Assembly: GCA_050506795.1 (NCBI GenBank)
Contig: JBJHCF010000008.1
Span: 32,001 to 96,000, forward strand
DNA length: 64,000 nt
Direction: 5' to 3'
Source of the DNA: Opitutia bacterium
GTDB taxonomy: Bacteria; Verrucomicrobiota; Verrucomicrobiia; Opitutales; T3Sed10-336
Part shown: piece after piece, positions 4,022 through 45,065 of the stretch
How positions within the stretch are numbered: the first letter of the stretch is position 1
How the letters are laid out: every line of letters begins with the position of its first letter
The notes under the pieces: model-generated
The model's database searches: none
What the model was told of the DNA's origin: nothing
What the model saw: only the letters and a program-made list of their open reading frames with translations
Translations under genes and position numbers: made by a program

Positions 4022-4046
4022 GACGAAAGTATCGGCGGCTTATTCC
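4022..4046 (-). promoter_or_regulatory. ECF-type promoter GGAAT-N16-CGTC for the DoxX-precursor-TTL operon
   Basis: GGAAT aagccgccgatacttt CGTC on the minus strand, about 48 nt upstream of the DoxX ATG. Confidence 0.7.
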
Positions 4047-4091
4047 GGAATATCGAAATTTTCGGAGCGCTCGCCCCGACAAGCTGCTAAT

Positions 4092-4505
4092 TCACGGAGA
4101 TTCGTCATTCCCGTCGCCGCGGGCGAACATACAGCGAATGAACTCAATTTGATGCCGGCGAAGAAGAAGAATCAGGGCGGCCGCGCACCAATTAGTGGCA
4201 GCGGCAACAGTCATGGGCAGCATCGGACCCGTCAGACCGAGTTCGGTCAGGTGGGCGATGAGGGCGCCGCTCATCACCCCCCAAGTCAGTATCGCCCCCC
4301 AAGGCGCACTGTAAGGGATGAGAAGCAGGACCGCGGCGGCAAGCTCAAGCACGGCAATGAGGTAACGGCCCCCCGGCTCCATGCCTAGCGTTTCGAAAAC
4401 CGCGATGGATTCAGCGTGGCCCGTGAGCTTGGCGGCGGCGGAAGCCCCGAGGATAATGGCCGCCATGATTTGGAGAATCCACGCGCTGAAGATACGGAGT
4501 TTCAT
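4092..4505 (-). CDS. DoxX-like family membrane protein
   Basis: KLTG..ES...F..LG.EP.GRY...V.EL, MSGAL..HL..LG. Confidence 0.8.
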   Translation of the reverse strand: MKLRIFSAWILQIMAAIILGASAAAKLTGHAESIAVFETLGMEPGGRYLIAVLELAAAVLLLIPYSAPWGAILTWGVMSGALIAHLTELGLTGPMLPMTVAAATNWCAAALILLLRRHQIEFIRCMFARGDGNDESP

Positions 4506-4511
4506 GGAAGC

Positions 4512-6065
4512 TTAGCGTTTTAGCGTTTCGCGGAGGTCGGGCCGCTCGGCAACCATGCGCCAGAGGTTGCTCCCGGTGGGAATGTAGAGGTCGTCGACGG
4601 TCAGTTCACTCGGGCAGACTTTCCCCATGGCGATGGTGAGTTCCTCCAGTTCGTGGCAGGTGTTGTCGATATAGTTCTTGACCCGTACCGCCTTGGCCTC
4701 TGGAACGAGACCGGCCTGAAGTCTCGGGTCCTGGGTTGTAATTCCGACCGGACAGGTGTTGTTGCCACACTCGCGGGCCTGGATACAACCGAGTGCGAAC
4801 ATGAAACCGCGGGCCGTGTAGCAGGCGTCGGCTCCGAGGGCGAAGGCGATGCACTGGCGGCCGGCCTCGACGAGTTTTCCGGCGGCGAAGACGTGCGTTC
4901 GGTCGCGCACCTCTTCACTCTTCAGGATCTGCACGAGGCCGTGAAGAGCGGGAAAGAGCGGCAGGCCGATACGGTCCAGAAAGGCGCTCGGTGCCGCCCC
5001 GGTGCCGCCCTCCCCACCATCAATCGCGATCGAGTCGGGAAAGACGTCCTGCCGCTTCATTTCCACGACCAACGCGTGCAATTCGTCGAATGAGCCGACG
5101 CAGAGTTTGATTCCCACCGGTAGGGCGACCAGCGACTGAACATGACCGATGAACCGGACGGTGGAGGGAAGGTCGACGCACTCGGAGTGATAAGGCGGAG
5201 AAATGATGTCCTCCCCCATCGGAACCTTCCGCAACTCCGCGATTTCCGGGGTGATTTTTTCCTTCGGCAGGAGGCCGCCCTTGCCCGGCTTGGCGCCTTG
5301 GGAAAACTTGATTTCGATCATTTTGACCTGGGGCTTGTCGGCCACTTCGCGGAGTAAGTCGGGGTCGAGCGCGCCGCTTTCGGTGCGAACACCGAACTTG
5401 GCGGTCCCTATCTGGAAAGTCAGATCGGCTTCCTCCATCAGGTGGTACTTCGGGTAACCGCCCTCGCCGGTGTTCATGGTGACCCCGGCCATCGCGGCCC
5501 CCCGCGCCAGGGCGCGGACGGCGTTTTCTCCGAGCGCACCGTAGCTCATGGCACTAATCATCAGCGGACGGGTCAGAGTGTGCGGCCGTTCCACCCCGCG
5601 ACTCTCGCCCAGCGTGAGCCGGAACGGCCGGGCCGCCTCCTTGTGGGTTGGGAACATGGAGTGGCGCAGCTTGATTTCGGTCGCGTCGTAGTCGAGCAAA
5701 CTTCCGAAGGAGGCGGCGGATTCGACGTTCTTGGCCTTGCGGTAGAGGTTGGTCCGTTCCAGGCGATTGAAGGGACGCTCTTCGCGGTCGTTGTTGAAGA
5801 GATACTGGCGAAGTTCCGGGCCCAGGCTTTCAATCAGGTAACGGCCCTGCCCGATGAGACCGAAGTTGCGCAGGAGGGTGTGTTCGCTCTGAACGTAACG
5901 GTAGAAGAGGTTGACAATCAGGAAAAAAAGCGCGGCGACCGTAGCGAAGTGAAAGTAAAAGGAGATCGTGCTGCCAAGCGCGAAAAAGAATGCCGGCAAG
6001 ACAAACAGGGCCGCATTCGTAAACCGAGCCAGCTTATGGAGATCGACGCGAAGTGCTTGTGGCAT
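4512..6065 (-). CDS. FMN-binding glutamate synthase family protein (stand-alone FMN domain with N-terminal TM helices)
   Basis: ISAMSYGAL, NTGEGG, EIKFSQGAKPGKGG.LP..K, DGGEGGTGAAP and the 3Fe-4S motif CIQARECGNNTCPVGI. Confidence 0.9.
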   Translation of the reverse strand: MPQALRVDLHKLARFTNAALFVLPAFFFALGSTISFYFHFATVAALFFLIVNLFYRYVQSEHTLLRNFGLIGQGRYLIESLGPELRQYLFNNDREERPFNRLERTNLYRKAKNVESAASFGSLLDYDATEIKLRHSMFPTHKEAARPFRLTLGESRGVERPHTLTRPLMISAMSYGALGENAVRALARGAAMAGVTMNTGEGGYPKYHLMEEADLTFQIGTAKFGVRTESGALDPDLLREVADKPQVKMIEIKFSQGAKPGKGGLLPKEKITPEIAELRKVPMGEDIISPPYHSECVDLPSTVRFIGHVQSLVALPVGIKLCVGSFDELHALVVEMKRQDVFPDSIAIDGGEGGTGAAPSAFLDRIGLPLFPALHGLVQILKSEEVRDRTHVFAAGKLVEAGRQCIAFALGADACYTARGFMFALGCIQARECGNNTCPVGITTQDPRLQAGLVPEAKAVRVKNYIDNTCHELEELTIAMGKVCPSELTVDDLYIPTGSNLWRMVAERPDLRETLKR

Positions 6066-6086
6066 GGCGATTGAATGAGGCCGGTT

Positions 6087-7256
6087 TCAAGTGCGGGCGG
6101 CTTCGGTGACCGCGCGTGCGACGCGACGCGGGACCTCTTCATCGAGAGCCGACGGCAGGATCCGCTCCGGGTCCGGCTCCGGGATGCTCCGGGCGATCGC
6201 CTCGGCGGCGGCCGCTTTCATCGCGTCCGTTATGCGCGGTGCGCGCGCATCCAGGGCGCCGCGAAAAATGCCGGGAAAGACCAGTACGTTGTTGACCTGG
6301 TTGGGGAAATCACCACGGCCGGTGGCGACCACCGACGCGCCGCCGGCCCGGGCCTCGTCGGGGAGTATCTCCGGATCCGGGTTGGCCAGGGCGAAAATGA
6401 TCGGGTCCGACGCCATGCGGCGAATATCCGCCGCCGTGAGCAATCCCCCGCGGCTGACTCCGACGAAGACGTCGGCTCCCTCGAGCATGGATTTGAGGCC
6501 ACCCGCTCGATCCTCGGGATTGCTGTATTCGAGCACGGCTTGTTTCACCGGGCCGAGGTCGTCGCGGCCGGAGTGGAGCGCCCCCTTGGAATCACAGACC
6601 ACCACTTCGCCCACCGTATCACAAACCCCGGAGACCTGATCGACACAACGGAGCAAACGCACAATGGCGCGCCCGGCCGCGCCCGCGCCGGAAATGACAA
6701 TCCGCAAATCGGAAAACTTTTTCCCGGCCACTCGGGCGGCGTTAATCAATCCCGCCAGCAAGACCACGGCGGTGCCGTGCTGATCGTCATGCATGACGGG
6801 AATACCGAGATCCTGGAGCCGGTCTTCGATTTCGAAGCAGCGGGGAGCGGAAATATCTTCGAGATTCACGCCGGCGAATCCGGGCGCCAACGCGCGCACC
6901 GCAGCCACCACGGCATCGGGCTCGCGAACGTCGAGGCAGATCGGCCAGGCGTCGATGCCGGCAAGTTTTTTGAAGAGAGCCGCCTTCCCCTCCATTACGG
7001 GCATGGCGGCGGCGGAACCGATATCGCCGAGTCCGAGCACGGCTGAACCATCGGTAACCACGGCCACGGCGTTGCCCGCCACAGTCAAATCGCGCCGGGC
7101 AGACCGATCGTCCCGGATCGCCCGGCACACCGCGGCCACACCGGGAGTGTAGGCGCGACTCAAATCCTCGAGATCCTCGAGGGGAACCTTCAACGCGAGT
7201 TCGATCTTGCCGCGACAGGCACGATGCAGTTCCAGGCTTTCGCGGTCAATTGTCAT
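6087..7256 (-). CDS. NAD(P)-dependent malic enzyme
   Basis: AYTPGVA, TDGSAVLGLG, VMEGKA.LFK, NLEDI, HDDQHGTA, GAGAAG, LANPDPEI, NQVNN; start set at ATG 7256. Confidence 0.92.
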   Translation of the reverse strand: MTIDRESLELHRACRGKIELALKVPLEDLEDLSRAYTPGVAAVCRAIRDDRSARRDLTVAGNAVAVVTDGSAVLGLGDIGSAAAMPVMEGKAALFKKLAGIDAWPICLDVREPDAVVAAVRALAPGFAGVNLEDISAPRCFEIEDRLQDLGIPVMHDDQHGTAVVLLAGLINAARVAGKKFSDLRIVISGAGAAGRAIVRLLRCVDQVSGVCDTVGEVVVCDSKGALHSGRDDLGPVKQAVLEYSNPEDRAGGLKSMLEGADVFVGVSRGGLLTAADIRRMASDPIIFALANPDPEILPDEARAGGASVVATGRGDFPNQVNNVLVFPGIFRGALDARAPRITDAMKAAAAEAIARSIPEPDPERILPSALDEEVPRRVARAVTEAART

Positions 7257-7272: not shown

Positions 7273-7297
7273 GACGCACCGGTCGGCGTTTTATTCC
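7273..7297 (-). promoter_or_regulatory. ECF-type promoter GGAAT-N16-CGTC (malic enzyme / glutamate synthase / DoxX)
   Basis: GGAAT aaaacgccgaccggtg CGTC. Confidence 0.7.
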
Positions 7298-7377: not shown

Positions 7378-7402
7378 GGAATATATGGGTGTTGGGCACG
7401 TC
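7378..7402 (+). promoter_or_regulatory. ECF-type promoter GGAAT-N16-CGTC (hydrolase-OsmC)
   Basis: GGAAT atatgggtgttgggca CGTC. Confidence 0.7.
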
Positions 7403-7435: not shown

Positions 7436-8632
7436 ATGGGAAAACGGATACATTTTAAAAGTCGTCAGGGACATCAATTGATCGGTGATGTCGAATTGCC
7501 GCCCGGTGGCGACTACCAGGCGACCGCACTTTTCGCACACTGCTTTACCTGCAATCGCAATATCAAAGCAGCCCGCGATATCACTCGATCGCTCGCGAAA
7601 GCCGGATTCGCCGTGTTGCGTTTTGATTTTACCGGACTCGGACAGAGCGAGGGCGATTTCAGTGATACGACATTTTCCTCGAATCTCGACGACCTCGAAG
7701 ACGCCGCCGGCTGGATGCTCGATAACCTGGCGGCGCCTCAGTTGCTCGTGGGTCATTCTTTGGGCGGAACGGCGGTTTTGGCGGTCGCGGAACGCCTCGA
7801 CTCCGTGCGGGCGGTAGCGTCCATCGGCGCCCCATTGCGACCGGATCACGTCCTCAAGCAGTTTGGCGATCAAATCGAAGAAATTGATAATACCGGTTCC
7901 GCGGAAGTCGATTTGGCGGGCCGGCCCTTTCAGGTCCGTCGGGACTTTATCGAAGACGCGCGCCACCACCCGATGGAGGAGCGCCTGGGACGGCTGGGCC
8001 GGGCCCTGCTGGTGCTCCATTCGCCGGTGGACCAGACGGTCTCTGTGGATCAGGCGCAAGGGATCTTCACCGCCGCCAGGCACCCGAAGAGTTATGTGAG
8101 CCTCGACGACGCCGACCACCTGCTCTCAAACGCGGCGGATTCCCGCTATGCGGGCTCGGTCATCGCCTCGTGGGCGGCACGATTTCTCGAGGTCGACGAG
8201 CCGGAAGCCGTCGAGGACGTACACGTATCCGGAACGACCGCGGACGGATTCCTTTGCCGGATTCGAAGCGGCGTTCACCGTCTGGTGGGCGATGAACCCG
8301 AATCGGTCGGGGGCGTGGACGAAGGTCCGACTCCTTACGATTTTCTGTCCGCCGCCCTGGGAGCTTGCACCGTGATGACCCTCAACATGTATGCCCGCCA
8401 CAAAGGCTTGCCGGTAGAGCGCGTCGACTGTCGGGTCCGACACGAAAAGACACACGCCGAGGATTGCGACAACTGCGAAAGCAACTCGGAAAAGCTCGAC
8501 ACATTTCAGCGCAAAATCCACATCGAAGGCGATCTGAACCAGGCACAGCGAGACAGAATGCTTGAAATCGCGAATCGCTGCCCTGTGCACAAGACGTTGT
8601 CGGGGAACATCCGAATCAAGACTAAGGAATAA
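7436..8632 (+). CDS. Bifunctional alpha/beta hydrolase / OsmC family protein
   Basis: FAHCFTC, RFDFTGLG.S.G, GHSLGG, ADHLL; OsmC part DEP...GG...GP.P..L.AALG.C and IANRCPVH. Confidence 0.92.
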   Translation: MGKRIHFKSRQGHQLIGDVELPPGGDYQATALFAHCFTCNRNIKAARDITRSLAKAGFAVLRFDFTGLGQSEGDFSDTTFSSNLDDLEDAAGWMLDNLAAPQLLVGHSLGGTAVLAVAERLDSVRAVASIGAPLRPDHVLKQFGDQIEEIDNTGSAEVDLAGRPFQVRRDFIEDARHHPMEERLGRLGRALLVLHSPVDQTVSVDQAQGIFTAARHPKSYVSLDDADHLLSNAADSRYAGSVIASWAARFLEVDEPEAVEDVHVSGTTADGFLCRIRSGVHRLVGDEPESVGGVDEGPTPYDFLSAALGACTVMTLNMYARHKGLPVERVDCRVRHEKTHAEDCDNCESNSEKLDTFQRKIHIEGDLNQAQRDRMLEIANRCPVHKTLSGNIRIKTKE

Positions 8633-8713: not shown

Positions 8714-9475
8714 TCATTCGGAAACGATTCTTATGAAGTCGATCGCCGCCGCGGTCGATTGGCCGGTATCGTCGGAGTCGGTCATAATTGCGATTCGTGC
8801 CGTTTCCGGCGGGTCCTCCCCAAAGAACCGTTCGTAGTCCTCCAGAATATGAATGGATTCCTCCCGCCATTCGCCCAACGGAGTGTCTTCCCCGCGCAGG
8901 ACAAACATCCCGACCCGGTCGGTGTAGGGACTCGGATAGTTGTCTTCTTCGACCGAAACCGCCGTCCACACGTAAGTCAGTCCGGAATGCGGCGGGAATT
9001 CTCCCCGGAGCGCCCGATACGCACGGTACCGGATCCGTGTTCCGAGATCGAGACCCTGCCGTTCGTACTCAAAGAATACGTACAAGCGCGCCGGATAGTC
9101 ATCGCCATCCCGCCGGAGGTGATCGACCCCCTCGATCGCCTTATCCACCCTCCACCGCCATTCGACGACCGGATAATCGCGGACGCGGAAGGGTTCCTTG
9201 AGAACGATTCCCGACCCTCCTCCATCACTCGTCATCAGAAGGAAGGGATTCCCCTCGTCATCCTCCTCGACGGCGTACACCGACTCGCGCGGGACCGCCG
9301 GAAAGGTGTGCGGTTCCCACCGGTCCAAATCGGCAAATGTCTCCTCCAGGCATACCTCGCGGCCGGAGGTTGCCACGGCGGCCGCCGCCAAGCCGAGAAA
9401 CCATAACAGGGCCGCACTGCGGAAACCCCACGCGAATCTCTCGCGCTCATTGAACAACCTAAAGCAACACACCAA
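8714..9475 (-). CDS. DUF3047 domain protein (start uncertain)
   Basis: W.W.V, GDDYPARLYV.F, L.YVW, IAIMTDSDDTG. Confidence 0.8.
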   Translation of the reverse strand: MVCCFRLFNERERFAWGFRSAALLWFLGLAAAAVATSGREVCLEETFADLDRWEPHTFPAVPRESVYAVEEDDEGNPFLLMTSDGGGSGIVLKEPFRVRDYPVVEWRWRVDKAIEGVDHLRRDGDDYPARLYVFFEYERQGLDLGTRIRYRAYRALRGEFPPHSGLTYVWTAVSVEEDNYPSPYTDRVGMFVLRGEDTPLGEWREESIHILEDYERFFGEDPPETARIAIMTDSDDTGQSTAAAIDFIRIVSE

Positions 9476-9479
9476 TTAA

Positions 9480-9504
9480 GACGATCGTCACGCGACTTTA
9501 TTTC
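9480..9504 (-). promoter_or_regulatory. ECF-type promoter GAAAT-N16-CGTC (DUF3047)
   Basis: GAAAT aaagtcgcgtgacgat CGTC. Confidence 0.6.
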
Positions 9505-9599: not shown

Positions 9600-9624
9600 G
9601 GAATACTTCTGCTCCCGGTACGTC
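9600..9624 (+). promoter_or_regulatory. ECF-type promoter GGAAT-N16-CGTC
   Basis: GGAAT acttctgctcccggta CGTC upstream of ORF 9652. Confidence 0.7.
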
Positions 9625-9651: not shown

Positions 9652-10068
9652 ATGATGACCCAACCCATGACCCAACCCACCAACAACACCACCGAGCCAT
9701 TTCTGCTGATCGTTTACAATGCGGATCGCGGATTCTTTAACGCCATTTCGGCCTCAACACACAAACTGCTTTCGCCAAAAACCTATGAATGTCCGCTGTG
9801 TCAGCACACATTCGGAATCACCGGCATGTTGCAGCCCTGGAAGGAGTACCTCGACATGCAGCCGCTACCGGTGTCCTTCACCCACCGGAACGACTTTCAC
9901 AAGGATTATCCGAGACACGCCTCACTTACGCTGCCCGCTATCCTTCTCATCGATCCTGAAAAGGGGGTTACTCCGGTGCTCGAATCCAAATCCGTTCGCA
10001 ATGCCAAGAATCTCTCGCACCTCATTTCCTTGATGGAAGAACAGCTTGACGCCCTCGAGATCAAATAA
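9652..10068 (+). CDS. Conserved hypothetical CxxC protein (thioredoxin-like fold suspected)
   Basis: YNAD.G...HK..SP.TY.CPLC..TFG pattern; preceded by the ECF motif. Confidence 0.7.
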   Translation: MMTQPMTQPTNNTTEPFLLIVYNADRGFFNAISASTHKLLSPKTYECPLCQHTFGITGMLQPWKEYLDMQPLPVSFTHRNDFHKDYPRHASLTLPAILLIDPEKGVTPVLESKSVRNAKNLSHLISLMEEQLDALEIK

Positions 10069-10088: not shown

Positions 10089-11414
10089 CTATCCGCCGCC
10101 GTTGAAATACCGGCTGGTTCCCAGCGCTTCGACCGCTTCTCCAATCCTTTGAAGCGCCAGCACATAGGCGGCGCGCCGCATGGAGATTCCGTGTCGATCC
10201 GCCAGGGCCTTCACCTCGCCGAATTGTTCCCGCATGCGTTTGTCCAACCGGCCATTCACCTCGTCTTCGCTCCAATAATCGCCCGAACGGTTCTGCACCC
10301 ATTCAAGGTAGCTCACCGTCACCCCGCCCGCATTGGCGAGGATGTCCGGCACGACCAGGACGCCCTTTTCATCCAGCACGGCGTCCGCCGAATCGTCGGT
10401 GGGACCGTTCGCCAGTTCGAGAACGACACCGGCCCGCACGTTTTTGGCGTTTTGTTCGCCGATGACGCCGGACAGGGCGGCCGGAATGAGAATATCGACG
10501 TCCAGAGCGAGCAATTCCTCATTGCTGAGTGTCTCGGCATCGACCGTTTCGCAAACGCTCCCTTCGCAATAGACCGCCTTGAGCTGACGCGTTTCGTTCT
10601 TGGAGTGAATCAGGCTTGGCACGTCGAATCCTTCTTTGCGGTAAATTCCCCCGCGTGAATCACTGACCGCCACCACCCGATAGCCGTCCGCATGCAGGAG
10701 CCGCGCCACCGCCTGACCGGCGTTGCCGAACCCCTGCACAGCCACGGTGGTTTTCGGAGGATTCCATCCCCGTTCCTCCTCCAACTGCTTCAAACAGATG
10801 TAACCCCCGCGACCGGTGGCCGCATCGCGTCCGAGACTGCCGCCCAGAGCGATCGGCTTTCCCGTGATGACGGCCGGTGTTCGGCGGCGGACGACGTTAG
10901 AATACTCGTCCATCATCCACCCCATGATCCGTGCGTTCGTGTACACATCGGGCGCCGGGATATCGGTTTCGGGGCCGATGAAATCGGCAATGCGGGCAAT
11001 GAACCCGCGGCTTAAACGCTCGAGTTCCCGCGTCGAAAGCGACTTCGGATCGACCATGATTCCACCCTTGGCCCCTCCCAGTGGCAGCCCCATGACCGCG
11101 CATTTGCAGGTCATCCAAAACGCCAGGGACTTGACCGTATCCAGGGTCAACCCGGGATGGAAGCGAATCCCTCCCTTGCCGGGCCCGCGCAGGTCGTTGT
11201 GGCGCACCCGATACCCCTCGAACACACGCAAACTTCCATCGTCCATCCGCACCGGCACCGATACGGTAACGATCGATTTTGGATACTTCAATCGTTCGAT
11301 CACCTCGGGATGAACATCGAGATAACCCGAGGCCTCGTCCAGCCGGGCAATCGCTCTTTCGTAACTTCCGCTGGAAGCGTTTTCGGTTCGTTGGGCCTTT
11401 TCGCGGTCAGACAT
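10089..11414 (-). CDS. gdhA: Glu/Leu/Phe/Val (glutamate) dehydrogenase
   Basis: [63 protein letters not shown]. Confidence 0.93.
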
Positions 11415-11496: not shown

Positions 11497-11521
11497 GACG
11501 AAGCAAACGAAAGTTAATTCC
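11497..11521 (-). promoter_or_regulatory. ECF-type promoter GGAAT-N16-CGTC (gdhA)
   Basis: GGAAT taactttcgtttgctt CGTC. Confidence 0.65.
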
Positions 11522-35961: not shown

Positions 35962-35962
35962 A

Positions 35963-37795
35963 ATGGATTCCAACGGACAACGACACCCGCACGCCCTGAA
36001 CGAACTGCTCGACGCTCCCGCGCGCTACACTTTCTTCACCGGCAAAGGCGGCGTGGGGAAAACCTCGATCGCGTCGGCCACGGCGCTCGCATTGGCCGAC
36101 GCCGGGAAACAGGTTCTCCTCATCAGCACAGATCCGGCCTCCAATCTGGACGAAGTCCTCGGATTGGAATTGAGCCGCGAGCCGCGGGCCGTACCCGCCT
36201 GCCAAAGTCTGTCCGCCCTCAATATCGATCCGGAAGCGGTGGCCGCCGAATACCGCGAAAAGGTCATCGGCCCCATGCGCGGGGTTCTGCCTGAAACGGC
36301 TCTCAAAGCGATGGAAGAACAACTCTCCGGGGCCTGCACCATGGAGATCGCCGCCTTCGATGAATTCACCGGCTACCTCAGCGACGAGGCCGCCAACGGA
36401 TTTGATGTCATCGTTTTCGATACCGCCCCGACCGGTCACACGCTTCGTCTGATGGCGCTCTCGCAAGCGTGGACGAGTTTTCTCGACGACAACACCAGCG
36501 GCAATTCCTGCCTCGGGCCGCTGGCTGGGCTGGAGAAACAACGTCAAGCCTACGCCCAAGCCGTCGAAGTACTCAAGGACGCCGACCGCACCGCCGTCTT
36601 TCTTGTCAGTCGCGCGAACAGGAGCACGCTGAAAGAAGCCCGCCGCACCTGGAAGGAGTTCGCCGATCTCGGAATTAAGAACCAAAGCCTCATTCTCAAC
36701 GGGTGGTACGCGCCGGCGGACGCCCACCGTGACGATCCCGTCGCGAAGCGCTGGCTGGAGAGGCAGAGCGCCGCCGTGGCGACCGAGGCCGCCTTCATCG
36801 ACTCCCTGCCTCTCTTCCGCTCCCCACTCCTCCCCGGCAATCTTATCGGGTTGGACAATCTGCGCGCGTTTTATCAGGGCACGGAAATCGATTCGCCCGC
36901 ATCCGCCGAAGCGGTCCAGCTCACCATTCCGGACCTGCCGGACCTCGGCCGATTGGCCGATCAGCTCGCACCGGCCGGCCGCGGTGTGATCATGACCATG
37001 GGCAAAGGCGGCGTCGGCAAGACCACCATCGCGGCGGCCCTGGCCCTCGCTCTCGCCGACCGCGGCGCCAAGGTGCGCCTGTCGACCACCGACCCGGCGG
37101 CCCATCTCACCGATGCCGTGGGCGACAAAGGGGACATCCCGCTCACCGTCGAACGCATCGACCCGAAAACCGAAACCGCCGCCTATATCGAAGAAGTGCT
37201 CGCCACCCAGGGGGCCGACATGGACGCGGAAAACCGGGCCCTCCTGGAGGAGGACCTGCGCTCGCCCTGCACCGAGGAAATCGCCGTCTTCCGCGCCTTC
37301 GCGCGCACCGTGGCCAAAGGAGAGGACGAGTTCGTCGTGCTCGACACCGCGCCCACCGGCCACACCCTCCTGCTTCTCGACGCCACCCAGTCCTACCACC
37401 GCGAGTTGGGACGGCAGACGCGTTCCACCCAGCAGGCGGAGGAGGTCGAGAAACTCCTCCCGCGCCTGCGCGACCCGGACTTCACCCGTGTCCTCCTCGT
37501 AACTCTCCCCGAAAGCACCCCTGTACACGAAGCGGCCGCCTTGCAGGCCGACTTGCGCCGCGCGGAAATCGAACCCCACGCCTGGATTATCAACCAGAGC
37601 CTGGCCGCCGCCGAAACACGGGAGCCGCTACTGGCCGCGCGCGGCCGGGCGGAAATCCCCTACCTGCACGAAGTCGTCGGTGAAAACCCGGACAAGCCCG
37701 TCTACCTGATCCCCTGGAGCCCCGTCGAGCCAACCGGACTCGAAGGCCTGCGCCAACTCGTCGGCAAGGTGCAAGCCGTCGCTTCCAAGCAATAA
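35963..37795 (+). CDS. arsA: Arsenical pump-driving ATPase
   Basis: Two GKGGVGKT and two DTAPTGHT motifs, STDPASNL, SGACT, SPCTEE. Confidence 0.95.
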   Translation: MDSNGQRHPHALNELLDAPARYTFFTGKGGVGKTSIASATALALADAGKQVLLISTDPASNLDEVLGLELSREPRAVPACQSLSALNIDPEAVAAEYREKVIGPMRGVLPETALKAMEEQLSGACTMEIAAFDEFTGYLSDEAANGFDVIVFDTAPTGHTLRLMALSQAWTSFLDDNTSGNSCLGPLAGLEKQRQAYAQAVEVLKDADRTAVFLVSRANRSTLKEARRTWKEFADLGIKNQSLILNGWYAPADAHRDDPVAKRWLERQSAAVATEAAFIDSLPLFRSPLLPGNLIGLDNLRAFYQGTEIDSPASAEAVQLTIPDLPDLGRLADQLAPAGRGVIMTMGKGGVGKTTIAAALALALADRGAKVRLSTTDPAAHLTDAVGDKGDIPLTVERIDPKTETAAYIEEVLATQGADMDAENRALLEEDLRSPCTEEIAVFRAFARTVAKGEDEFVVLDTAPTGHTLLLLDATQSYHRELGRQTRSTQQAEEVEKLLPRLRDPDFTRVLLVTLPESTPVHEAAALQADLRRAEIEPHAWIINQSLAAAETREPLLAARGRAEIPYLHEVVGENPDKPVYLIPWSPVEPTGLEGLRQLVGKVQAVASKQ

Positions 37796-37878
37796 TCCTC
37801 AAACTTTGTCACCACTTCACATTGCAACCAATCAACCATGACACTAACCAACCCGACTGGCACTCGGTTAATCCCAAA

Positions 37879-37926
37879 GTAGAACACGCTTCCAGCGTGT
37901 TGTCTCAGGCTGGAAGCCTAAGCTAC
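37879..37926. repeat. Inverted pair of GTAG-type REP palindromes (second family)
   Basis: GTAGAACACGCTTCCAGCGTGTT / CTCAGGCTGGAAGCCTAAGCTAC. Confidence 0.7.
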
Positions 37927-37982
37927 TTCGAGCCAGCGCCTAAACCGAGTGCCATTTTAACCAACTATCATACCGAAAACAC

Positions 37983-38198
37983 ATGACCACCTACGTTTAC
38001 GAAACCATCCCATCCGACAAAAACGAAGAGCCCAAGCTCTTTGAGATTCAGCAAAGCATGAAAGACGCCCCGCTGACTCGGCACCCCGAAACCGGTGAAC
38101 CCATCCGCCGCGTCATCCTCGGAGGTTACGGCTTGATGAAGTCGGAAGGCGGGGATGCCAACGAAGGCTGCTGCGGCCCGAGCTGCGGCTGCCACTAA
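37983..38198 (+). CDS. FmdB-like small protein with a Cys-rich tail
   Basis: M.TYVYE...FEI.QSM.D.PLT.HPETG.P.RRVI.GG; tail GCCGPSCGCH. Confidence 0.8.
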   Translation: MTTYVYETIPSDKNEEPKLFEIQQSMKDAPLTRHPETGEPIRRVILGGYGLMKSEGGDANEGCCGPSCGCH

Positions 38199-38239
38199 TC
38201 AAGAAAACGGGAGTGTTGGAGGATTGGAGTGTTCGCGTT

Positions 38240-39307
38240 ATGAAGAAAAACAAGCCTGTCGGAATCAGTTTCTTTGAAAAGAACCTCACCGTCTGGGTCG
38301 CTCTGTGTATGGTTGCGGGTGTTCTAATCGGAAAGTTTCTTCCCGGAATCCCTCAATTTCTGAGCCGATTCGAATACGCGCAAGTGTCGATTCCGATCGC
38401 CGTCCTGATCTGGTTGATGATCTACCCGATGATGATGAAGGTGGATTTCACCAGCATCAAGAATGTGCGCAAGGAACCCCGCGGGCTTTATGTTACCTGG
38501 ACGGTCAACTGGTTGATCAAGCCGTTCACCATGTTTGCGATTGCGGCCTTTTTCTTCTACTTTCTATTCAAGGCCTGGATTCCGCATGAACTGGCCCGGG
38601 ATTATCTCGCCGGAGCCGTTATCCTTGGCGCGGCGCCCTGCACGGCCATGGTCTTTGTCTGGAGCCACCTGACGAGGGGAAACCCCGCCTACACGGTCGT
38701 CCAGGTCGCGACCAATGACTTGATCATTCTTGTCGCTTTCGTGCCCATCGTGGTTCTTCTCCTGGGAATTGGCGGGGTCAGTATCCCCTGGGACACGCTG
38801 TTGCTCTCGGTCGTCCTTTTCGTGGTTATTCCTTTGGCCGGCGGAATCTGGACCCGGAGAGCCGTGATCAAACGCAAGGGTGAGGCGTATTTCCACCAGC
38901 GGTTCATCACCAAGTTCAACAACGTTACCATCATTGGTCTCCTCCTGACCCTTGTCCTCATCTTCTCATTCCAAGGGGACGTCATTCTCGGAAATCCGCT
39001 CCATATTCTCCTGATTGCGATTCCTCTGATCATTCAAACCTTCCTGATCTTTTTCATCGCGTACTTTGTCAGTAAAAAACTGCGGATCTGTCATGATGTC
39101 GCCGCACCCGCGGGCATGATCGGCGCCTCGAATTTCTTCGAACTGGCTGTGGCGGTAGCCATCACGATCTTCGGCGCTTCATCCCCTGTGGTTTTGGTCA
39201 CGATCGTCGGCGTGTTGGTCGAAGTTCCGGTGATGCTGGCGCTGGTCAAGATCGCCAACCGGACGAAGCACTGGTTCCCCGCCAGAGAAAGAGCACAACC
39301 CGAATAG
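38240..39307 (+). CDS. acr3: ACR3 family arsenite efflux transporter
   Basis: MIYPMM, VNWLIKPF, GAAPCTAMVFVWS, GASNFFELAVA, LVEVPVM. Confidence 0.95.
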   Translation: MKKNKPVGISFFEKNLTVWVALCMVAGVLIGKFLPGIPQFLSRFEYAQVSIPIAVLIWLMIYPMMMKVDFTSIKNVRKEPRGLYVTWTVNWLIKPFTMFAIAAFFFYFLFKAWIPHELARDYLAGAVILGAAPCTAMVFVWSHLTRGNPAYTVVQVATNDLIILVAFVPIVVLLLGIGGVSIPWDTLLLSVVLFVVIPLAGGIWTRRAVIKRKGEAYFHQRFITKFNNVTIIGLLLTLVLIFSFQGDVILGNPLHILLIAIPLIIQTFLIFFIAYFVSKKLRICHDVAAPAGMIGASNFFELAVAVAITIFGASSPVVLVTIVGVLVEVPVMLALVKIANRTKHWFPARERAQPE

Positions 39308-39338
39308 ATGCAAACCCCATCCAGAAAGGACATTTCCC

Positions 39339-40214
39339 ATGTTTAAGCGTTTTATTGTCGCAACCGACCTTTCCCCCGCCTCATTCGCCGTGGTAGGTTG
39401 TCTCGGCGCATTACGGGCCTACGGCGCGGAGCAATGCCTGCTCCTGCAATGCCTTACCTATCAAGAGGCGGCTTCGACGGCCCTGTCCTACCATACGGAA
39501 CCGATCGAAGGAATGTTGCGGGAGCAAAAAGAAGTCCTCGAAAAGGAGGGGTTCGCGGTGGAAGCCAGAACCGTCGTCGGTTCCCCCAAACAGGAAGTGA
39601 CCCGAATTGCGAGCGAGGAGGATTACTCCCTGATTGTGGTTGGAGCACAGGGACACTCCCTAATGGCCGAAAGACTCCTGGGGGGCGTTGCCTATGGCAT
39701 CATCCACAACGCAAAAAAACCGGTCATGGTGGTGCCGGTCGAAAATAAACCGGGCGAAGAGGATGGTTGCGAGCCCATCGCCCACTGCGGCTTCAACGAT
39801 CATGTCTTATTCGCCACCGATTTTTCGGAGATGGCTGACAACGCGTTCACCTTTGTCGAGCAACTGGTTGCCAACGGGGCGGGAAAGGTGACGCTGGTCC
39901 ACGTTCAGGACAAGGTGAAGCTGGAAAAACACCTCAAGGAACGCCTGGAGGAATTCAACAGGATCGATCAAGGTCGCCTGGAGGAGCTAAAAGAAAGGCT
40001 GCTGAAAAAGGGCAGCCCTGAGATTGAGATCGAGATCCGCTATGGGAAGCCTTTTGCAGAGATCACCCGTCTGATCCGGGAACGCAACGCGCAGCTTGTC
40101 GTCATGGGAACTCAAGGACGCAGCTTTGCGGGTGAACTCTTCCTGGGCAGTGTCAGCCACAACGTTGCCCGTTCCTCGGTCGCTCCGGTACTGCTGATTC
40201 CAGCAGTTCGGTAA
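39339..40214 (+). CDS. Universal stress protein (tandem USP domains)
   Basis: VATD.S twice, LIVVGAQG, MGTQGRS...LGSVS. Confidence 0.9.
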   Translation: MFKRFIVATDLSPASFAVVGCLGALRAYGAEQCLLLQCLTYQEAASTALSYHTEPIEGMLREQKEVLEKEGFAVEARTVVGSPKQEVTRIASEEDYSLIVVGAQGHSLMAERLLGGVAYGIIHNAKKPVMVVPVENKPGEEDGCEPIAHCGFNDHVLFATDFSEMADNAFTFVEQLVANGAGKVTLVHVQDKVKLEKHLKERLEEFNRIDQGRLEELKERLLKKGSPEIEIEIRYGKPFAEITRLIRERNAQLVVMGTQGRSFAGELFLGSVSHNVARSSVAPVLLIPAVR

Positions 40215-40232: not shown

Positions 40233-43184
40233 TTAATTTCCCTCATTGCGGCTTCCCTCCTTCCCGCGGGCCGCGATATTGCACGTATCATGGAGGGCGC
40301 CCGATGTGTAGCGGCGCATCCTCTCCTTCCATTGCCCGGGGATCCGCTCATCCACCCGGGCGAAGAGGTTTACGGGAGTACCGCTCCCTTCGCGAATCAG
40401 CTGCAGTGCCGTGGTCAACTGCAGCACTGTGCCGCGAATGATATCATTCAGGATCTGCGCTTCCTCCGAGTTGTGACTCCCGCCGTAGCTTCGCTCGATC
40501 ATCAGGACCTGACCCGACTCTTCAAGATTGAGCGGTCGGAGCTTTTGACGGATCTCTCCGCGGATCTCCACACCAAATTCATCCTCGATCTCCAAAACGA
40601 TCCCTGTGATCCGATCGCGAAAGGCATCGATGGTATCCTGGCTTTCCGCCCGTAAATCGATGGAAAGGTGGGCTTGTCGAAAGAAGTTGCTGTAGCTGAC
40701 ATCCTCCACCCGGCGCAGCCCAACCCCCTCTCCTCCGGAGGCGACGCGGCGGGCAAGCGTTCCATAGATGTAGCCCTCCAGTCCGCTCTGCAGTTCCTCG
40801 CGCTCCTCCTCCGTCAGAGCCGGACCTTCCACCGCAAGGGAAACGCTCGCGCGCCCCGGGATGACATTCCGGTTGATTCCCGGCTCAAGATGGATGTTGT
40901 TAACGTTCGGTCGCAGGGTCCCGATCCCGGCCCGCGTGCGCTCCGCATTGATGACCGCGACGCGCTCGCGAAACTCGCCGGCCAGGCGCGCGATCGCCAC
41001 ACCAGCATCGCGCCGATCCATCGTCCTTGTGGCCCCGGCATGGTTGAGCTCGCCTGAAAGCGTCCAGCGAGTGACCAGGGCGGGATCTTCGTTCCACTCC
41101 GGAAGCCCATCCCCCTGGAGAATGCCGACTGTGATCCGGACGTTCTCGAAGGCCTCCTCCAGTGCCAGGGCTCGCAATCTGCGATTCATCTCGAGGCCGG
41201 CCTCGTCCGACCGCTCCCCCTCGAAACCGAAGTCCTCCTGGTGGATCCCCATCACGGTACCCACCGGGACCATGGGAACTCCGGCGCGATCGAGATCGGG
41301 GCCCTGTTCGATATGCCTTTCGTAAGTATGCGGCGTATAGAACTCTCCGGGTTGGAAGCAGGCGGCAAGGAGCCCGTCGCTGTCGCCTGCTTTCACTCCT
41401 TTCAGATCGCACGCAAGATCGATTCTGCCTTCACTCTGGAGATCGCGCAAACCCTCGAGAACCGCCACCAGCTTCTCGCCAAAACGGTTCCCGTCGCCAT
41501 CGGTCATTCCATAAATGGTTTCGAGCGACGCACGTCCGGTCACGGCCGCGCTGCCGGGCATGGAGACCCCACCGCCCGTAAAGCTCATCTCTTCGCCGAT
41601 GAACGCGCTCACACAAATCCGGGGCCCGTCTCCCGATGGGACCAGATCCAGTTCGAGATAGGTTCTTAGATCGTTCAGCGTGTGCGCCACTTCGATACCG
41701 GAGGCGACCCCGAGACGCCCATCGAACATACCACCGTCCAGGACCGTATCGATATGTGAACAGAATGAAATCGCCCCATCCATCAGATCGGAGAACCGAA
41801 CCCGCCCCTGGCGCAGCGCTTCCCGGTCGTCTTCTGAAAGAAGCATTCCGTGAATACTGCCGGCCCGGTCCACCGCCACTGTCAGGCCCGCACGATTCAT
41901 CTGACGGATGGTCTCCACACTCGCACGGAAAAATCCGGGCGTCAGCGCCCGTGCGTCGATCCTGCCTTCGGAATCGAGCGACACCTTTGCCAGTTGATCG
42001 ATTCGCCGCCGCAGACGAACCCCGAGTCCGCGAGCCTGGGAAAGCTCTTCGCTGGATTGCAGGTAGTGGAGCAGATCGTTTCCCTTGCGCAGTTCCCCTT
42101 CGATATCCCGGAGTGTCGCATAATAGGCGACAGTTACCGCCACCTCCGCGAGGGGTTCGAGCTGTTCGCTCGACCAGGCGGCATCCTCTTGAACCACCCG
42201 GTGCACATCGCTCTCATCGATCGGAACGCGAAGCCGCGCTTCGATCGCGGCACAATCCGCCGAACGGCTCTCCCGTGAGCGAACGAGCTCCCGCGTAAGC
42301 GTGCGAAAGGGATCGCCCCGTCCGGTATACATCCGCTGCATCCGATCGTGTTGCTCATCGCCGCCCAGAATGTTGTTGGCATAGGTCCAGGTTGCCGGAT
42401 CGCCGATGCTTCCACGTTCGGCGCCACAGAGCGCCCGAACGATCGCCGCATGCCCTTCCACGGAAAGCTCCTCGAGATCCACCTCATTCAAGGTGCATCC
42501 CTCCCCGAGCAGCGCTTCGACCTCTCTTCGTTGAGTCGCGGTCAGATACCGTTCATCGAGAATCAGGTGTCCGAGAAGGGGCGCCTCAAGAAGCAGGCAT
42601 TCGGGTGCGTTCAAAAGTTCCCGCATCTCCAGGGGAGGAAAGAGACGATCGGTTTCCAGGGTCGGATCTATGACCCGGTCGACAACCCGGCCATTCTCTT
42701 CATCCCAGAAGCGAAGAACGGGATAGACATGGCTCCGCGCCACGGCGAACTGAACACGGGGCGCGTGATGCAGAACAAACGGCCCCGTAAGAATCCGGTC
42801 CCCTTCGATCTCCAGCCCCGGGCAACTGTCGGAGAAAAGCCGGCGCAGGACCGGATCGGTCAAATCCGCCTTCTCGCAGAGAGAGTTGGGAACAACGATC
42901 GCATGCTCCCGCTCTCGCCAGTCCTCTTCGGCCAGTGCCTCCGGCGACATATCCCGCTCCATCGCCAGACCCCGCCAGATCGCGTAAGGCGGGATTTCCA
43001 GGGCGAGCAGATGATCGATAATCATGCTGGCGCGCTTTCCGCAACCGTATTCAGATATCGAGTACGGGAGCGCCAGGTAGGCGAGAATCAAATCAAGAAC
43101 CGCCCCACTCTGCGAAAGGAGGGGGAAGCCGGTGGATCCGTCCCGCTCAATGGAAACAGACAAAGTTTCTCTTTCAGGTATCAC
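40233..43184 (-). CDS. Fusion of a protein-glutaminase-like Cys-His-Asp domain and an M20 (allantoate/N-carbamoyl amidohydrolase-like) Zn hydrolase
   Basis: N-terminal YGCGKRA..SHVYPV..VIDPTL; C-terminal SHIDTV..GG.FDGRLGV, GEE, ERHIEQGP, NHAGAT, NVIPG, GGSHN, SGALHD. Confidence 0.75.
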   Translation of the reverse strand: MIPERETLSVSIERDGSTGFPLLSQSGAVLDLILAYLALPYSISEYGCGKRASMIIDHLLALEIPPYAIWRGLAMERDMSPEALAEEDWREREHAIVVPNSLCEKADLTDPVLRRLFSDSCPGLEIEGDRILTGPFVLHHAPRVQFAVARSHVYPVLRFWDEENGRVVDRVIDPTLETDRLFPPLEMRELLNAPECLLLEAPLLGHLILDERYLTATQRREVEALLGEGCTLNEVDLEELSVEGHAAIVRALCGAERGSIGDPATWTYANNILGGDEQHDRMQRMYTGRGDPFRTLTRELVRSRESRSADCAAIEARLRVPIDESDVHRVVQEDAAWSSEQLEPLAEVAVTVAYYATLRDIEGELRKGNDLLHYLQSSEELSQARGLGVRLRRRIDQLAKVSLDSEGRIDARALTPGFFRASVETIRQMNRAGLTVAVDRAGSIHGMLLSEDDREALRQGRVRFSDLMDGAISFCSHIDTVLDGGMFDGRLGVASGIEVAHTLNDLRTYLELDLVPSGDGPRICVSAFIGEEMSFTGGGVSMPGSAAVTGRASLETIYGMTDGDGNRFGEKLVAVLEGLRDLQSEGRIDLACDLKGVKAGDSDGLLAACFQPGEFYTPHTYERHIEQGPDLDRAGVPMVPVGTVMGIHQEDFGFEGERSDEAGLEMNRRLRALALEEAFENVRITVGILQGDGLPEWNEDPALVTRWTLSGELNHAGATRTMDRRDAGVAIARLAGEFRERVAVINAERTRAGIGTLRPNVNNIHLEPGINRNVIPGRASVSLAVEGPALTEEEREELQSGLEGYIYGTLARRVASGGEGVGLRRVEDVSYSNFFRQAHLSIDLRAESQDTIDAFRDRITGIVLEIEDEFGVEIRGEIRQKLRPLNLEESGQVLMIERSYGGSHNSEEAQILNDIIRGTVLQLTTALQLIREGSGTPVNLFARVDERIPGQWKERMRRYTSGALHDTCNIAARGKEGSRNEGN

Positions 43185-43251: not shown

Positions 43252-43371
43252 TCACGGTCGTAGATCGCGACCTCGTGAAACACCCCGGTAATCCTTCCCG
43301 GCCAGTTCGGCGAATGTGAAGAAGGCGGCAAATGCACTGAGGGCAACCAGGATAGGGAAAAGCTTTTTCAT
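43252..43371 (-). CDS. Possible 39-aa small protein with a signal-peptide-like N-terminus
   Basis: MKKLFPILVALSAFAAFFTFAELAGKDYRGVSRGRDLRP*; lies downstream of an ECF motif. Confidence 0.35.
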   Translation of the reverse strand: MKKLFPILVALSAFAAFFTFAELAGKDYRGVSRGRDLRP

Positions 43372-43459: not shown

Positions 43460-43484
43460 GACGAACGGGCGCGACCGTTATTCC
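43460..43484 (-). promoter_or_regulatory. ECF-type promoter GGAAT-N16-CGTC
   Basis: GGAAT aacggtcgcgcccgtt CGTC, facing the sORF and the M20 fusion gene. Confidence 0.6.
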
Positions 43485-43523
43485 CCTTTTGGCTCAACCG
43501 AGGGGCATCCTGGCCAGGCTCGC

Positions 43524-43889
43524 TCATTCTTGCGGCCGGATCTCTCTTCCGGTGGGAGATATCACAATCTCTTCGAATGCAAATTGCCGTCCGGGATTCG
43601 CAATAAGTTCCAGCGTCCAGTGAATGGCGATAAGCTTCCCGGAGAAGCTGTAAGGTCCACGGGGAAGGTAAACGCTGAAGGGACGACTCTCGTGAGCCGC
43701 CGGATTTTCAAACGGAATACTGCGTACGATTTCCGCTTCTGGATCGCCTTTCCCTTCCGTGTACCAAAGGAGATTCAGGAAAATCGTTTCCGGCGCCTCA
43801 TTGAATTCCCAGGACACCGTTCCCTCGACTTTTTCACAGGGGTTAAAGGCACGCCGCTCATCCGCAAACTGTATGCTCAATTTCCCCAT
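43524..43889 (-). CDS. Hypothetical protein (arrestin/SpoOM-like beta-sandwich suspected)
   Basis: L.W.T.GKG, LP.GPYSFSGKLI.I.W; coupled to the upstream gene. Confidence 0.7.
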   Translation of the reverse strand: MGKLSIQFADERRAFNPCEKVEGTVSWEFNEAPETIFLNLLWYTEGKGDPEAEIVRSIPFENPAAHESRPFSVYLPRGPYSFSGKLIAIHWTLELIANPGRQFAFEEIVISPTGREIRPQE

Positions 43890-43890
43890 G

Positions 43891-44880
43891 TCACACGACC
43901 TCCTTTGGGAGGATTATGATGCGAAAAGACTCATCCAGGTCGGCCGAGCGCGAAATCTTTCCCTGAAACTGAAAATCCCACAGGACCTTTTTGTTGTGCC
44001 AGTCGAAAGTGGGCATCGTGTCGGACGGTATATCGATCCAAAGGTTTCCCTCCGCAATCGCGAGACGGTCGGACGCTTCGTAGACGAGCATGGAATAAAA
44101 CGTGGACGTCACCGTAGTCAGCTCACTCGCCCCCTTGTACGTTACCTCCTCGATCCCCCTGAGTCTGACTTGCAGCGATTCCATCCGGTCGATGCGACCG
44201 TTGATGACCCAGGTCAGTCTCAGTTTGTCGCCAAGCGGGACTGCCTTCGAGCTTACCGTGACCTCGGGACGGGGGTTGAACAGGATTAGAAAATTGTAAA
44301 CGAGAGTGATCAGACAGAAAACCCCGATCCCCACGAGTACAATGCCGGATAGGCCAAACAAGAGCATCCCCTGGGTATCACCGTCCCGCCACTTCCCCAT
44401 GAGAAAGGTCAACTGTACAACCGCAAGGCCCACAAAGAATACCGTAATGACCAATACAATAACAAAAATGAACAATCGATTTCGCCCGAATTTGAGTCTT
44501 GTCTCCTGAAGGTCGGCTTTGCCCACCCTGGGCAGCCCCTGCACGGCCTCGCTCCTCAATCTGGCCGTCCCTCCACGCTCCGCCTCGGTTCCCTCAAAAA
44601 CCGGCGCCCAATCCTTCTGCCTCGCGTAGCGGGTGCCGCGCGCCGCCAGGTAAATCGGAATGCCCCCAAGCAGCATGAAGAAAAGGGCGAGGAGGGTGAG
44701 AACAAGGGACGTTGAATATTCGCTTAACAGCAGCACAACTCCGCCCCCTGTCATCATCACTCCAACGGCCAGTACCAAAAGCCGTTCCAGTAAACTCACC
44801 CGGCCGCCGGCCCATGCGGATATGGGTTTGGATGGGGTCTCTCCTCCTCCCGGTCCTTTGGCTGATTCGTGCCCGTCCAT
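43891..44880 (-). CDS. Hypothetical membrane protein with a C-terminal beta-sandwich
   Basis: Four hydrophobic segments; start ATG 44880. Confidence 0.7.
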   Translation of the reverse strand: MDGHESAKGPGGGETPSKPISAWAGGRVSLLERLLVLAVGVMMTGGGVVLLLSEYSTSLVLTLLALFFMLLGGIPIYLAARGTRYARQKDWAPVFEGTEAERGGTARLRSEAVQGLPRVGKADLQETRLKFGRNRLFIFVIVLVITVFFVGLAVVQLTFLMGKWRDGDTQGMLLFGLSGIVLVGIGVFCLITLVYNFLILFNPRPEVTVSSKAVPLGDKLRLTWVINGRIDRMESLQVRLRGIEEVTYKGASELTTVTSTFYSMLVYEASDRLAIAEGNLWIDIPSDTMPTFDWHNKKVLWDFQFQGKISRSADLDESFRIIILPKEVV

Positions 44881-45040
44881 TGATTGCTTCCTTTGATCCC
44901 CGCAGCCATCGAAATCCAGGTGAGGGGTATTCCAAACACACCGGCAACCGATCTGAAAGCGAGCAATTGGCGCCCACAATTTGAGAGTAACACCGGTACC
45001 GAGTCAACGCTTCTCATTTCGGCCCTTTGACAGAAACCAG

Positions 45041-45065
45041 GGAATAACCCATGCCCCGACTCGTC
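45041..45065 (+). promoter_or_regulatory. ECF-type promoter GGAAT-N16-CGTC (glycosyltransferase)
   Basis: GGAAT aacccatgccccgact CGTC. Confidence 0.65.

Follow-up and report, generated by a model that had tools for sequence, protein, structure and literature searches.

The stretch of DNA studied here (the window) comprises 64,000 nucleotides (nt) of an Opitutia bacterium genome (assembly GCA_050506795.1, here G000), at positions 32,001 to 96,000 of contig JBJHCF010000008.1 (C8). It encodes arsenosugar-pathway enzymes, a second phosphate-specific transport (Pst) system, thiol-redox and DoxX-type proteins, glutamate enzymes, and a putative operon for a ribosomally made, post-translationally modified peptide (RiPP), and many of these genes are preceded by the bipartite motif GRAAT-N16-CGTC. 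From the enrichment, orientation, spacing, and conservation of the motif, its position before a sigma gene, and its specificity to one sigma clade, we conclude that it is very probably the -35 (GGAATA) and -10 (CGTC) promoter of a single autoregulated extracytoplasmic function (ECF) sigma factor, encoded on the adjoining contig C56, that would transcribe the cluster on release by its anti-sigma factor. Genes were called with a self-trained gene finder, and the start codons of the targets were chosen by us. The candidate promoters, their distances to the genes they face, and the other features relevant here are as follows.

829 to 3974, minus strand: putative RiPP operon of DoxX (3564-3974), a 117-amino-acid (aa) (E[AG])n precursor (3198-3551), and a tubulin-tyrosine ligase (TTL) family protein with a PqqD domain (829-3180), assigned by Pfam
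4022 to 4046, minus strand: promoter of the DoxX/Glu-rich precursor/TTL-PqqD operon, 47 nt from DoxX
7273 to 7297, minus strand: promoter of an operon (4092-7256) for malic enzyme (16 nt), an FMN glutamate-synthase-like protein, and a DoxX-like protein
7378 to 7402, plus strand: promoter of an alpha/beta-hydrolase-OsmC fusion (7436-8632), 33 nt; conserved in the related genome G006
9480 to 9504, minus strand: promoter of a DUF3047 gene (8714-9457), 22 nt
9600 to 9624, plus strand: promoter of a gene for a 138-aa protein without Pfam match (9652-10068), 27 nt; conserved in G002 and G006
11497 to 11521, minus strand: promoter of a Glu/Leu/Phe/Val dehydrogenase (GDH) gene (10089-11414), 82 nt; conserved in G006
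12461 to 12485, plus strand: promoter of a gene for a 141-aa membrane protein (12494-12919), 8 nt; probably leaderless
15911 to 15935, plus strand: promoter of a CMD/AhpD-type CxxC protein gene (16016-16570), 80 nt; conserved in G002 and G006
19272 to 19296, minus strand: promoter of a DUF3179 gene (18247-19218), 53 nt
19449 to 19473, plus strand: promoter of a 54-aa His-rich open reading frame (ORF) (19485-19649), 11 nt
21367 to 21391, minus strand: promoter of a HEAT-repeat/AhpC-TSA CxxC protein gene (20164-21357), 9 nt; probably leaderless
24909 to 24933, minus strand: promoter of the second, divergent pstSCAB operon (21411-24898), 10 nt before PstS; conserved in G006
26222 to 26246, minus strand: promoter of an ArsM-like methyltransferase gene (25043-26185), 36 nt; conserved in G002, G006, and G009
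26330 to 26354, plus strand: leftover duplicate promoter with no intact target
34765 to 40214, plus strand: ArsR-arsC-arsD-arsA-acr3-usp operon, no motif
43460 to 43484, minus strand: promoter facing a 39-aa remnant ORF (43252-43371), 88 nt
45041 to 45065, plus strand: promoter of a TIGR04282 arsenosugar glycosyltransferase gene (likely start 45141, end 45791), 75 nt
45801 to 46577, minus strand: MTAP/PNP-family phosphorylase gene, convergent to TIGR04282, no motif upstream

Exact matches to GRAAT-N16-CGTC number 19 in the window, compared to a mean of 2.32 (standard deviation, 1.66; maximum, 7) in 100 dinucleotide shuffles of it, none of which reached 19. A preliminary description of this DNA had put the chance expectation at about one per 64 kb, which is too low, but each of the 16 copies that it listed is matched exactly in coordinate and strand, and we confirm the motif set as a real and local signal. 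The three further matches, at 1182(-), 57822(-), and 62061(-), lie within called genes and stay under 13 bits in a matrix trained on relatives, and are therefore consistent with chance. This matrix was built from 53 intergenic exact sites at 19 loci of relatives only (G000 excluded); because these sites were picked by the same core consensus, it tests localization and not the core itself. The near-match TGAAT-N16-AGTC at 12391(-) is indeed present but also scores below 13 bits. That all 16 copies are outside genes depends on the choice of start, as in five cases (7273, 7378, 21367, 24909, and 45041) the longest ORF reaches upstream into the motif. Of the 16 copies, 13 face intact genes 8 to 82 nt downstream and two face short remnant ORFs (11 and 88 nt). 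The copy at 26330, which has no intact target, aligns with the CMD promoters at 15911 and in G002 and G006, and we therefore regard it as a duplicate and not as an independent copy. The reported lack of the motif before the ars operon and the housekeeping genes holds, since no site of at least 13 bits occurs between 26400 and 43400 or before the housekeeping genes to the right of 46000. Without a motif, the ArsR operon falls outside the regulon and serves as an internal negative control.

The copies differ from one another in spacer sequence, and the motif forms no palindrome and no direct repeat. Its orientation follows the strand of the gene, its extended consensus is gGGAATAw-N-CGTC, and no promoter-like GRAATA site has CGTT at spacer 16. 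At several genes the motif ends 8 to 12 nt before the ATG, a spacing suggestive of leaderless mRNAs; in Table 1 of PMC6180224, the printed promoters extend 9 to 10 nt beyond CGTC.

In the whole genome there is no overall excess of matches at spacer 16 (166, versus 132 to 223 for spacers 13 to 19), and only promoter-like positions are enriched (26, including 17 on C8, versus 2 to 10 at other spacers). A genome-wide regulon is ruled out, as the promoter-like spacer-16 sites outside C8 number nine, within the background of 2 to 10. Cluster sites account for 23 of the 43 matrix hits of at least 17 bits in G000 (4 in the reversed genome) and for 22 of the 28 hits of at least 19 bits (0 in the reversed genome), and the cluster holding these 22 makes up 1.7% of the genome. 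We estimate the regulon at about 23 promoters spread over 83 kb, a cluster that extends left of the window onto the rest of C8 and onto C56 with these sites.

C8:105: site facing a VTT gene
C8:16973 and C8:17000: divergent sites facing a FAD oxidoreductase gene and a DinB-TANGO2-OlsF-like operon
C8:21407: site facing a DUF547 gene
C8:26399 and C8:29510: two variants with a 17-nt spacer
C56:24741: site facing the sigma operon

The sigma gene had been predicted to lie outside the window, and the likely cognate is encoded on C56 (G000:C56:24775-25317), where the motif ends 9 nt before its ATG; this gene and its neighbor are the likely autoregulated ECF/anti-sigma pair that the preliminary description proposed to seek. 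The sigma factor has 180 aa with Sigma70_r2 and r4_2 only, and its gene is followed by those for a 251-aa anti-sigma factor with one transmembrane (TM) helix, an AhpC/TSA (peroxiredoxin-like) protein, ArsS, and TIGR04283. The 3' end of C56 and the start of C8 are opposite ends of a repeated insertion element. Among the four left-end and two right-end contigs, only C56 and C8 share the 6-bp flank GCCGGC, and one contig carries the sigma operon through the VTT gene in each of G002, G006, and G009. The insertion sequence, which we presume to be IS21-like, sits in a region of repetitive extragenic palindromic (REP)-like repeats; such repeats are found between genes both at 19380-19900 of the window and at the C56 3' end. 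A permease gene recurs beside the sigma gene in G002 (L036:5409-6563) and after arsS in G073 (L088:8303-9292), a genome with the motif before arsS.

The model of the anti-sigma factor (C56:25314-26069; pLDDT 87.7) has a helical bundle at the N-terminus, a single TM helix, and, on the periplasmic side, an alpha/beta domain in which Cys172 and Cys187 lie on neighboring strands. Structural matches are modest (Z 6.7 to RseB/MucB for the periplasmic part and Z 5.4 to the cytoplasmic domains of MucA and PupR for the N-terminus), and Foldseek returned no match to the fold at E<=0.001. Similarity to DUF3379 is weak (E 1.7e-4; 21 bits versus a Pfam cut-off of 33), as it is in 23 of the 53 anti-sigma homologs (E<=0.01), and the Atlas neighbors stand at 0.95 for DUF3379 and 0.96 for a zf-HC2 cluster.

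The C56 sigma factor belongs to a clade of 15 (SH-aLRT 95) in a tree of 66 homologs picked by protein similarity or ArsS linkage (L014, with a stop in frame, was dropped); in a fuller analysis of 38 rows, 13 members formed a 96/88 clade. Its relatives are titled Opitutales or Verrucomicrobia. The exact motif occurs within 800 nt upstream of all 13 clade members paired with an anti-sigma factor, directly before the sigma gene in nine, compared to neither of the two orphan members and 3 of 51 other paralogs. The latter often keep GGAATA, with nCTC at -10 (in 29 of 51, as counted with a loose pattern and without a control). Region 2.4 contains WLFxV in 12 of 15 clade members versus 0 of 50 readable others; L263 is an exception, with T in region 2.4 and yet the motif. 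From work on E. coli RpoE, the position at issue contacts the -10 element.

Two other sigma factors of G000 are relevant here. An orphan clade member within the cluster (C8:22822-23385) follows a peroxiredoxin-like gene and has neither an anti-sigma gene nor the motif upstream. Its region 4.2 is almost identical to that of the C56 sigma, but region 2.4 reads WLFATLYNQF and not WLFTVLYREF, and because of this divergence its ability to read CGTC is doubtful either way. The locus (G000:C8:22822-26159; L002:8822-12159) comprises a sigma-54-type site, a PAS-PAS sigma-54 activator, the peroxiredoxin-like gene, and the orphan, in the same layout in G006, and may represent a sigma-54-to-ECF cascade; RpoN is present in G000. 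The housekeeping paralog on C3 has the same -35 box and an nCTC-type -10. At its locus (G000:C3:70378-72912) and at L263-L291, GGAATA-N16/17-nCTC lies upstream, with the order xerD-queA-ECF-anti-sigma in Opitutales, and this is apparently an undescribed promoter of a phylum-wide ECF family.

The C56 sigma factor appears to fit no described ECF group cleanly (literature drawn on throughout: PMC6180224, PMC7826278, PMC4010505, PMC3834237, PMC6620896, PMC13598754, and bioRxiv 2024.02.01.577332). The closest characterized promoter is that of ECF26 (Sinorhizobium meliloti RpoE1, RpoE4, and RpoE6; PMC6180224), a group with mapped GGAAT-N16-CGTC promoters (RpoE4/RpoE1), autoregulation, and a one-TM anti-sigma at +1. 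The G000 motif has the -35 GGAATA and -10 GT of this group, and the promoter at 19272(-) closely resembles that of SMc04049 (PMC6180224, Table 1). However, the sigma factor is only 34% identical to pSymA RpoE6, versus 45 to 55% to non-clade verrucomicrobial paralogs, and the S. meliloti targets concern sulfite oxidation and number 3 to 40 genes, compared to about 23 promoters in G000. The likeness to SigR/SigH (ECF12) drawn in the preliminary description extends to the GGAAT -35 and the thiol-redox type of targets, but that class was ruled out by its -10 (GTT), spacer (17 to 18 nt), and soluble metal-binding anti-sigma; G000 has CGTC, a 16-nt spacer, and an anti-sigma in the membrane. ECF207 (PMC7826278) shares a predicted promoter of GGAATAAA / GTC, a one-TM anti-sigma at +1, and about 1% verrucomicrobial members; assignment to it fails because its anti-sigmas carry the zinc-binding HX3CX2C (HxxxCxxC), found in 0 of 7 anti-sigmas tested. 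ECF28 (PMC7826278) likewise has a one-TM anti-sigma at +1, of the DUF3379 type to which the G000 protein shows the weak similarity given above, but it is described as gammaproteobacterial, with a thiolase/FadL fatty-acid or aromatic context and no conserved promoter, in contrast to the peroxiredoxin/ArsS/glycosyltransferase context in G000. The best plasmid match (44%), from Photobacterium, was considered as an ECF28 member and dropped, its anti-sigma having no Pfam match. In ECF16 SigF/NrsF and ECF293 RpoE, an ECF sigma also governs a DoxX-linked peptide operon along with oxidative or metal stress genes; sigma group, promoter, and anti-sigma differ, as does the modifier as described there (DUF692, versus a TTL-family ligase in G000).

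Of the arsenosugar set in G000, ArsS (TIGR04167; 437 bits, cut-off 300), TIGR04282 (176, cut-off 134), and TIGR04283 (256, cut-off 182) are all above threshold, and the set is split over several ECF promoters along with the second Pst and many redox genes. The ArsM-like protein falls below the NCBIfam ArsM cut-offs (128 of 400 bits for NF038099; 344 of 500 for NF040538); its homologs lie beside ArsS at 47 of 80 ArsS loci (the best 80 of 484). Also co-occurring at these 80 loci are TIGR04283 (34), DUF547 (21), VTT (19), FAD oxidoreductase (13), TIGR04282 (13), and an ECF homolog (10). The motif occurs 21 times in 122 kb of ArsS loci with a strong ECF hit, versus 36 times in 873 kb without; three of the ECF-bearing loci are not independent, because their gene order repeats that of G002, G006, and G008. 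Of the 12 family genomes, 8 contain ArsS, as do 7 of 151 genomes across the phylum. Two genomes, G007 and G322, have a clade sigma without ArsS; the three sites of G322, which also lacks ArsM, face peroxiredoxin and DinB-OlsF-like genes and the sigma operon, and this points to a redox core. The conserved core of the regulon is the arsenosugar set (ArsS, ArsM-like, TIGR04282/TIGR04283, VTT, DUF547, and FAD oxidoreductase) plus thiol-redox proteins. The preliminary description had placed the RiPP operon, CxxC redox proteins, glutamate enzymes, Pst, and ArsM under one stress sigma factor; the arsenosugar genes belong to the conserved core, the RiPP operon is not shared with family relatives (see below), and a stress role is suggested by gene content.

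Both arsM and arsS occur at 46 loci; the two genes are adjacent in 27, separated by a transporter in 18, and otherwise arranged in one. The intervening transporters are MIP (aquaglyceroporin; 9), PHO4 (PiT; 6), other ABC (2), and Pst (1), with families assigned from five plus one representative loci; loci with an unrelated transporter in this slot include L104, L108, L111, L117, L123, L146, and L148. The Pst of the window is a second copy, the other operon being on C15 without motif, with a gene that we take from its sequence type to be PhoU-like; no Pho box was found before either pstS by a simple pattern. The nearest plasmid relative of the window PstS, the only one found, adjoins an ars cluster, the single close relative in a set of 400 phylum genomes lies away from ars genes, and a plasmid search with the G160 pst region gave no match. 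ArsS adenosylates DMAs(III) to DDMAA (PMC13598754), and arsM of Synechocystis is described as not induced by arsenic (PMC4010505). A literature search, with most subscription journals outside its coverage, turned up no paper that connects arsenosugar genes with a sigma factor.

The RiPP operon (DoxX, precursor, and TTL-PqqD) was found in 0 of 11 family relatives and appears to have been horizontally acquired. The named top homologs are mostly from halophilic Gammaproteobacteria; a plasmid search with the TTL gave no match. Among 80 metagenome TTL loci (L183-L262) from an alignment-based scan, 57 have the repeat tract, and nearby genes include DinB (51), VTT (22), DoxX (15), CMD (12), and glutamate-synthase-like (12). 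At 40 of these loci (including L207 and L226) we found GTAAC-N16-YGTC, with 92 sites versus 0 to 9 at other spacers, and none in the G000 cluster. The same gene set thus appears under different ECF-like motifs across lineages, and the G000 copy, given the different motif elsewhere, appears to have been rewired. We suspect that TTL-ligase/PqqD, DoxX, and the (E[AG])n precursor together make up a RiPP class not yet described, which is widespread in halophilic Gammaproteobacteria (often labeled "amylase"); none of the papers listed by a literature search on the operon mentions tubulin-tyrosine ligase. The TTL family implies that the precursor may be glutamylated, and we take its leader to resemble those of HvfA-type precursors.

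The locus as a whole is a rearranged gene cluster. A compositionally foreign island was ruled out (GC content of 0.587 in the cluster versus 0.589 in the genome), and no tRNA was found in the window or in L001-L003. The cluster holds many toxin-antitoxin insertions, and decayed duplicate segments of 85 to 90% identity (10021-10210/16727-16910 and 12083-12324/26405-26646) point to past duplication and rearrangement within it. A probable defense system (SNF2 helicase, DUF3800, DUF1156 methylase, and DUF499 ATPase; L001:3737-14573 on C8) splits the regulon between the VTT and FAD oxidoreductase genes, which are nearly adjacent in G002. An AbrB/MazE-Doc pair occupies the place where G006 has a motif before the YHS (seleno)protein-family gene (14524-15791), which has none here; the sequence suggests that this insertion removed the promoter. 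The 54-aa ORF at 19485-19649 is His/Arg-rich and a possible metal binder; its G006 counterpart is a 148-aa lipoprotein-like protein with the same His-rich tail, from which we take the G000 copy to have an internal deletion. A gene at 40233-43184 encodes a protein of about 930 to 980 aa, part of which resembles allantoate amidohydrolase/M20 enzymes (NCBIfam, under the cut-offs) and whose N-terminal region has no family assignment. The MTAP/PNP-family phosphorylase adjoins arsenosugar genes in some relatives. No Rfam match was found in the window.

The scheme that we infer takes in the stimulus, how the sigma factor binds its anti-sigma and is released from it, and transcription from these sites. 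At rest, the sigma factor would be held by its co-transcribed one-pass membrane anti-sigma. A signal at the envelope, with thiol-reactive or oxidant stress the likeliest, would free it to transcribe the roughly 23 promoters of the cluster, its own included and several of them leaderless. The products would be arsenosugar-pathway enzymes, the second Pst, thiol-redox and DoxX-type proteins, glutamate enzymes, and the acquired RiPP operon. On the stimulus itself our judgment is evenly balanced for and against thiol/oxidant or thiophilic-metal stress. Several points weaken or weigh against this scheme. The motif precedes 32 of 42 orthologs in relatives' contigs, compared to 38 of 3462 background genes, a figure biased upward because most of these contigs were fetched for carrying the motif. 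The cysteine pair of the anti-sigma may be structural and not sensory, because it occurs in 45 of 53 homologs, housekeeping paralogs included. The C8 orphan and the C3 paralog are both in G000, so sole control by the C56 sigma would be presumptive. G011 has motif sites and ArsS, with no clade sigma found (the genome is 82% complete), and the basal clade sigma of G007 shows little beyond autoregulation, the sites in that genome being mostly attributable to chance. Finally, ten ArsS loci have an ECF gene nearby, and in four of them (L104, L111, L117, and L174) it is a non-clade sigma without the motif upstream.

It is possible, though unlikely, that the same sigma factor and promoter respond to arsenic, with As(III) binding the periplasmic cysteine pair and the regulon forming a second detoxification tier beside the ArsR operon. 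ArsS and TIGR04283 do lie in the sigma operon itself, and ArsS is found in 8 of 10 clade-sigma genomes (kin, not independent) as opposed to its rarity across the phylum. The only plasmid relative of PstS is beside an ars cluster, and second pst operons in arsenic islands have been described (PMC3834237). However, ArsS is missing from G007 and G322 despite their clade sigma, the ArsR operon has no motif, the one close PstS relative in the phylum stands apart from ars genes, and the DinB, VTT, DoxX, CMD, and glutamate-synthase genes at TTL loci occur under another motif and almost never with arsenosugar genes. Rather more doubtful is that the C8 orphan, made from a sigma-54 promoter under the PAS-PAS enhancer-binding protein and so bypassing the anti-sigma, mainly or additionally reads the promoters. 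Its nesting in the clade, near-identical region 4.2, and place in the cluster behind a sigma-54-type site (as in G006), along with the presence of RpoN, are consistent with this, but its region 2.4 suggests another -10, it has no motif upstream, and only G000 and G006 yielded it, whereas the motif is also conserved in genomes that did not. Such a contribution is compatible with control by the C56 sigma and does not exclude it.

We consider it very unlikely that the cluster is a phosphate-limitation program with high-affinity Pst, in which phospholipid gives way to ornithine-type lipids free of phosphorus (OlsF-like) and to lipids that contain arsenic. Both pstSCAB and the DinB-TANGO2-OlsF-like operon carry the motif, and the OlsF-like link recurs in G006, G009, G011, and G322; however, the separate pstSCAB-phoU-like operon on C15 has no motif, the OlsF match is far below its cut-off (300 versus 620 bits), and most targets are redox proteins. 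That the motif is an activator site or the remnant of a repeated mobile element, and not a sigma promoter, is scarcely credible: the duplications and toxin-antitoxin insertions of the cluster, and the one duplicate copy, would suit it, but the unrelated spacers, the lack of palindrome or direct repeat, the strand orientation, the 8- to 12-nt spacing to several ATGs, and the tracking of one sigma clade all argue for a promoter.

Control by the C56 sigma factor would follow an ordinary regulatory principle; the clade and the content of target genes are new. One tentative extension, which we think improbable, is that arsenosugar synthesis is a deliberate stress-induced program and not detoxification, in which arsenic would be imported and organoarsenicals built for protection or membranes under an ArsR-independent ECF sigma. 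The transporter slot between arsM and arsS, and the Pst that here shares the sigma promoter, are a hint of this. On the same reading, a one-residue change in region 2.4 (T to V) would switch the -10 from nCTC to CGTC, and foreign operons would be captured by promoter replacement. A verrucomicrobial ECF clade gains an assigned promoter, a sigma/anti-sigma pair that is its likely cognate, and target promoters numbering about 23, and the paralogous sigma factors with the same -35 and different -10 elements are a natural pair for studies of specificity. DUF547, DUF3047, DUF3179, VTT, and a TTL-type RiPP are tied to one putative stress response, and a testable regulator is offered for the bacterial arsenosugar genes.

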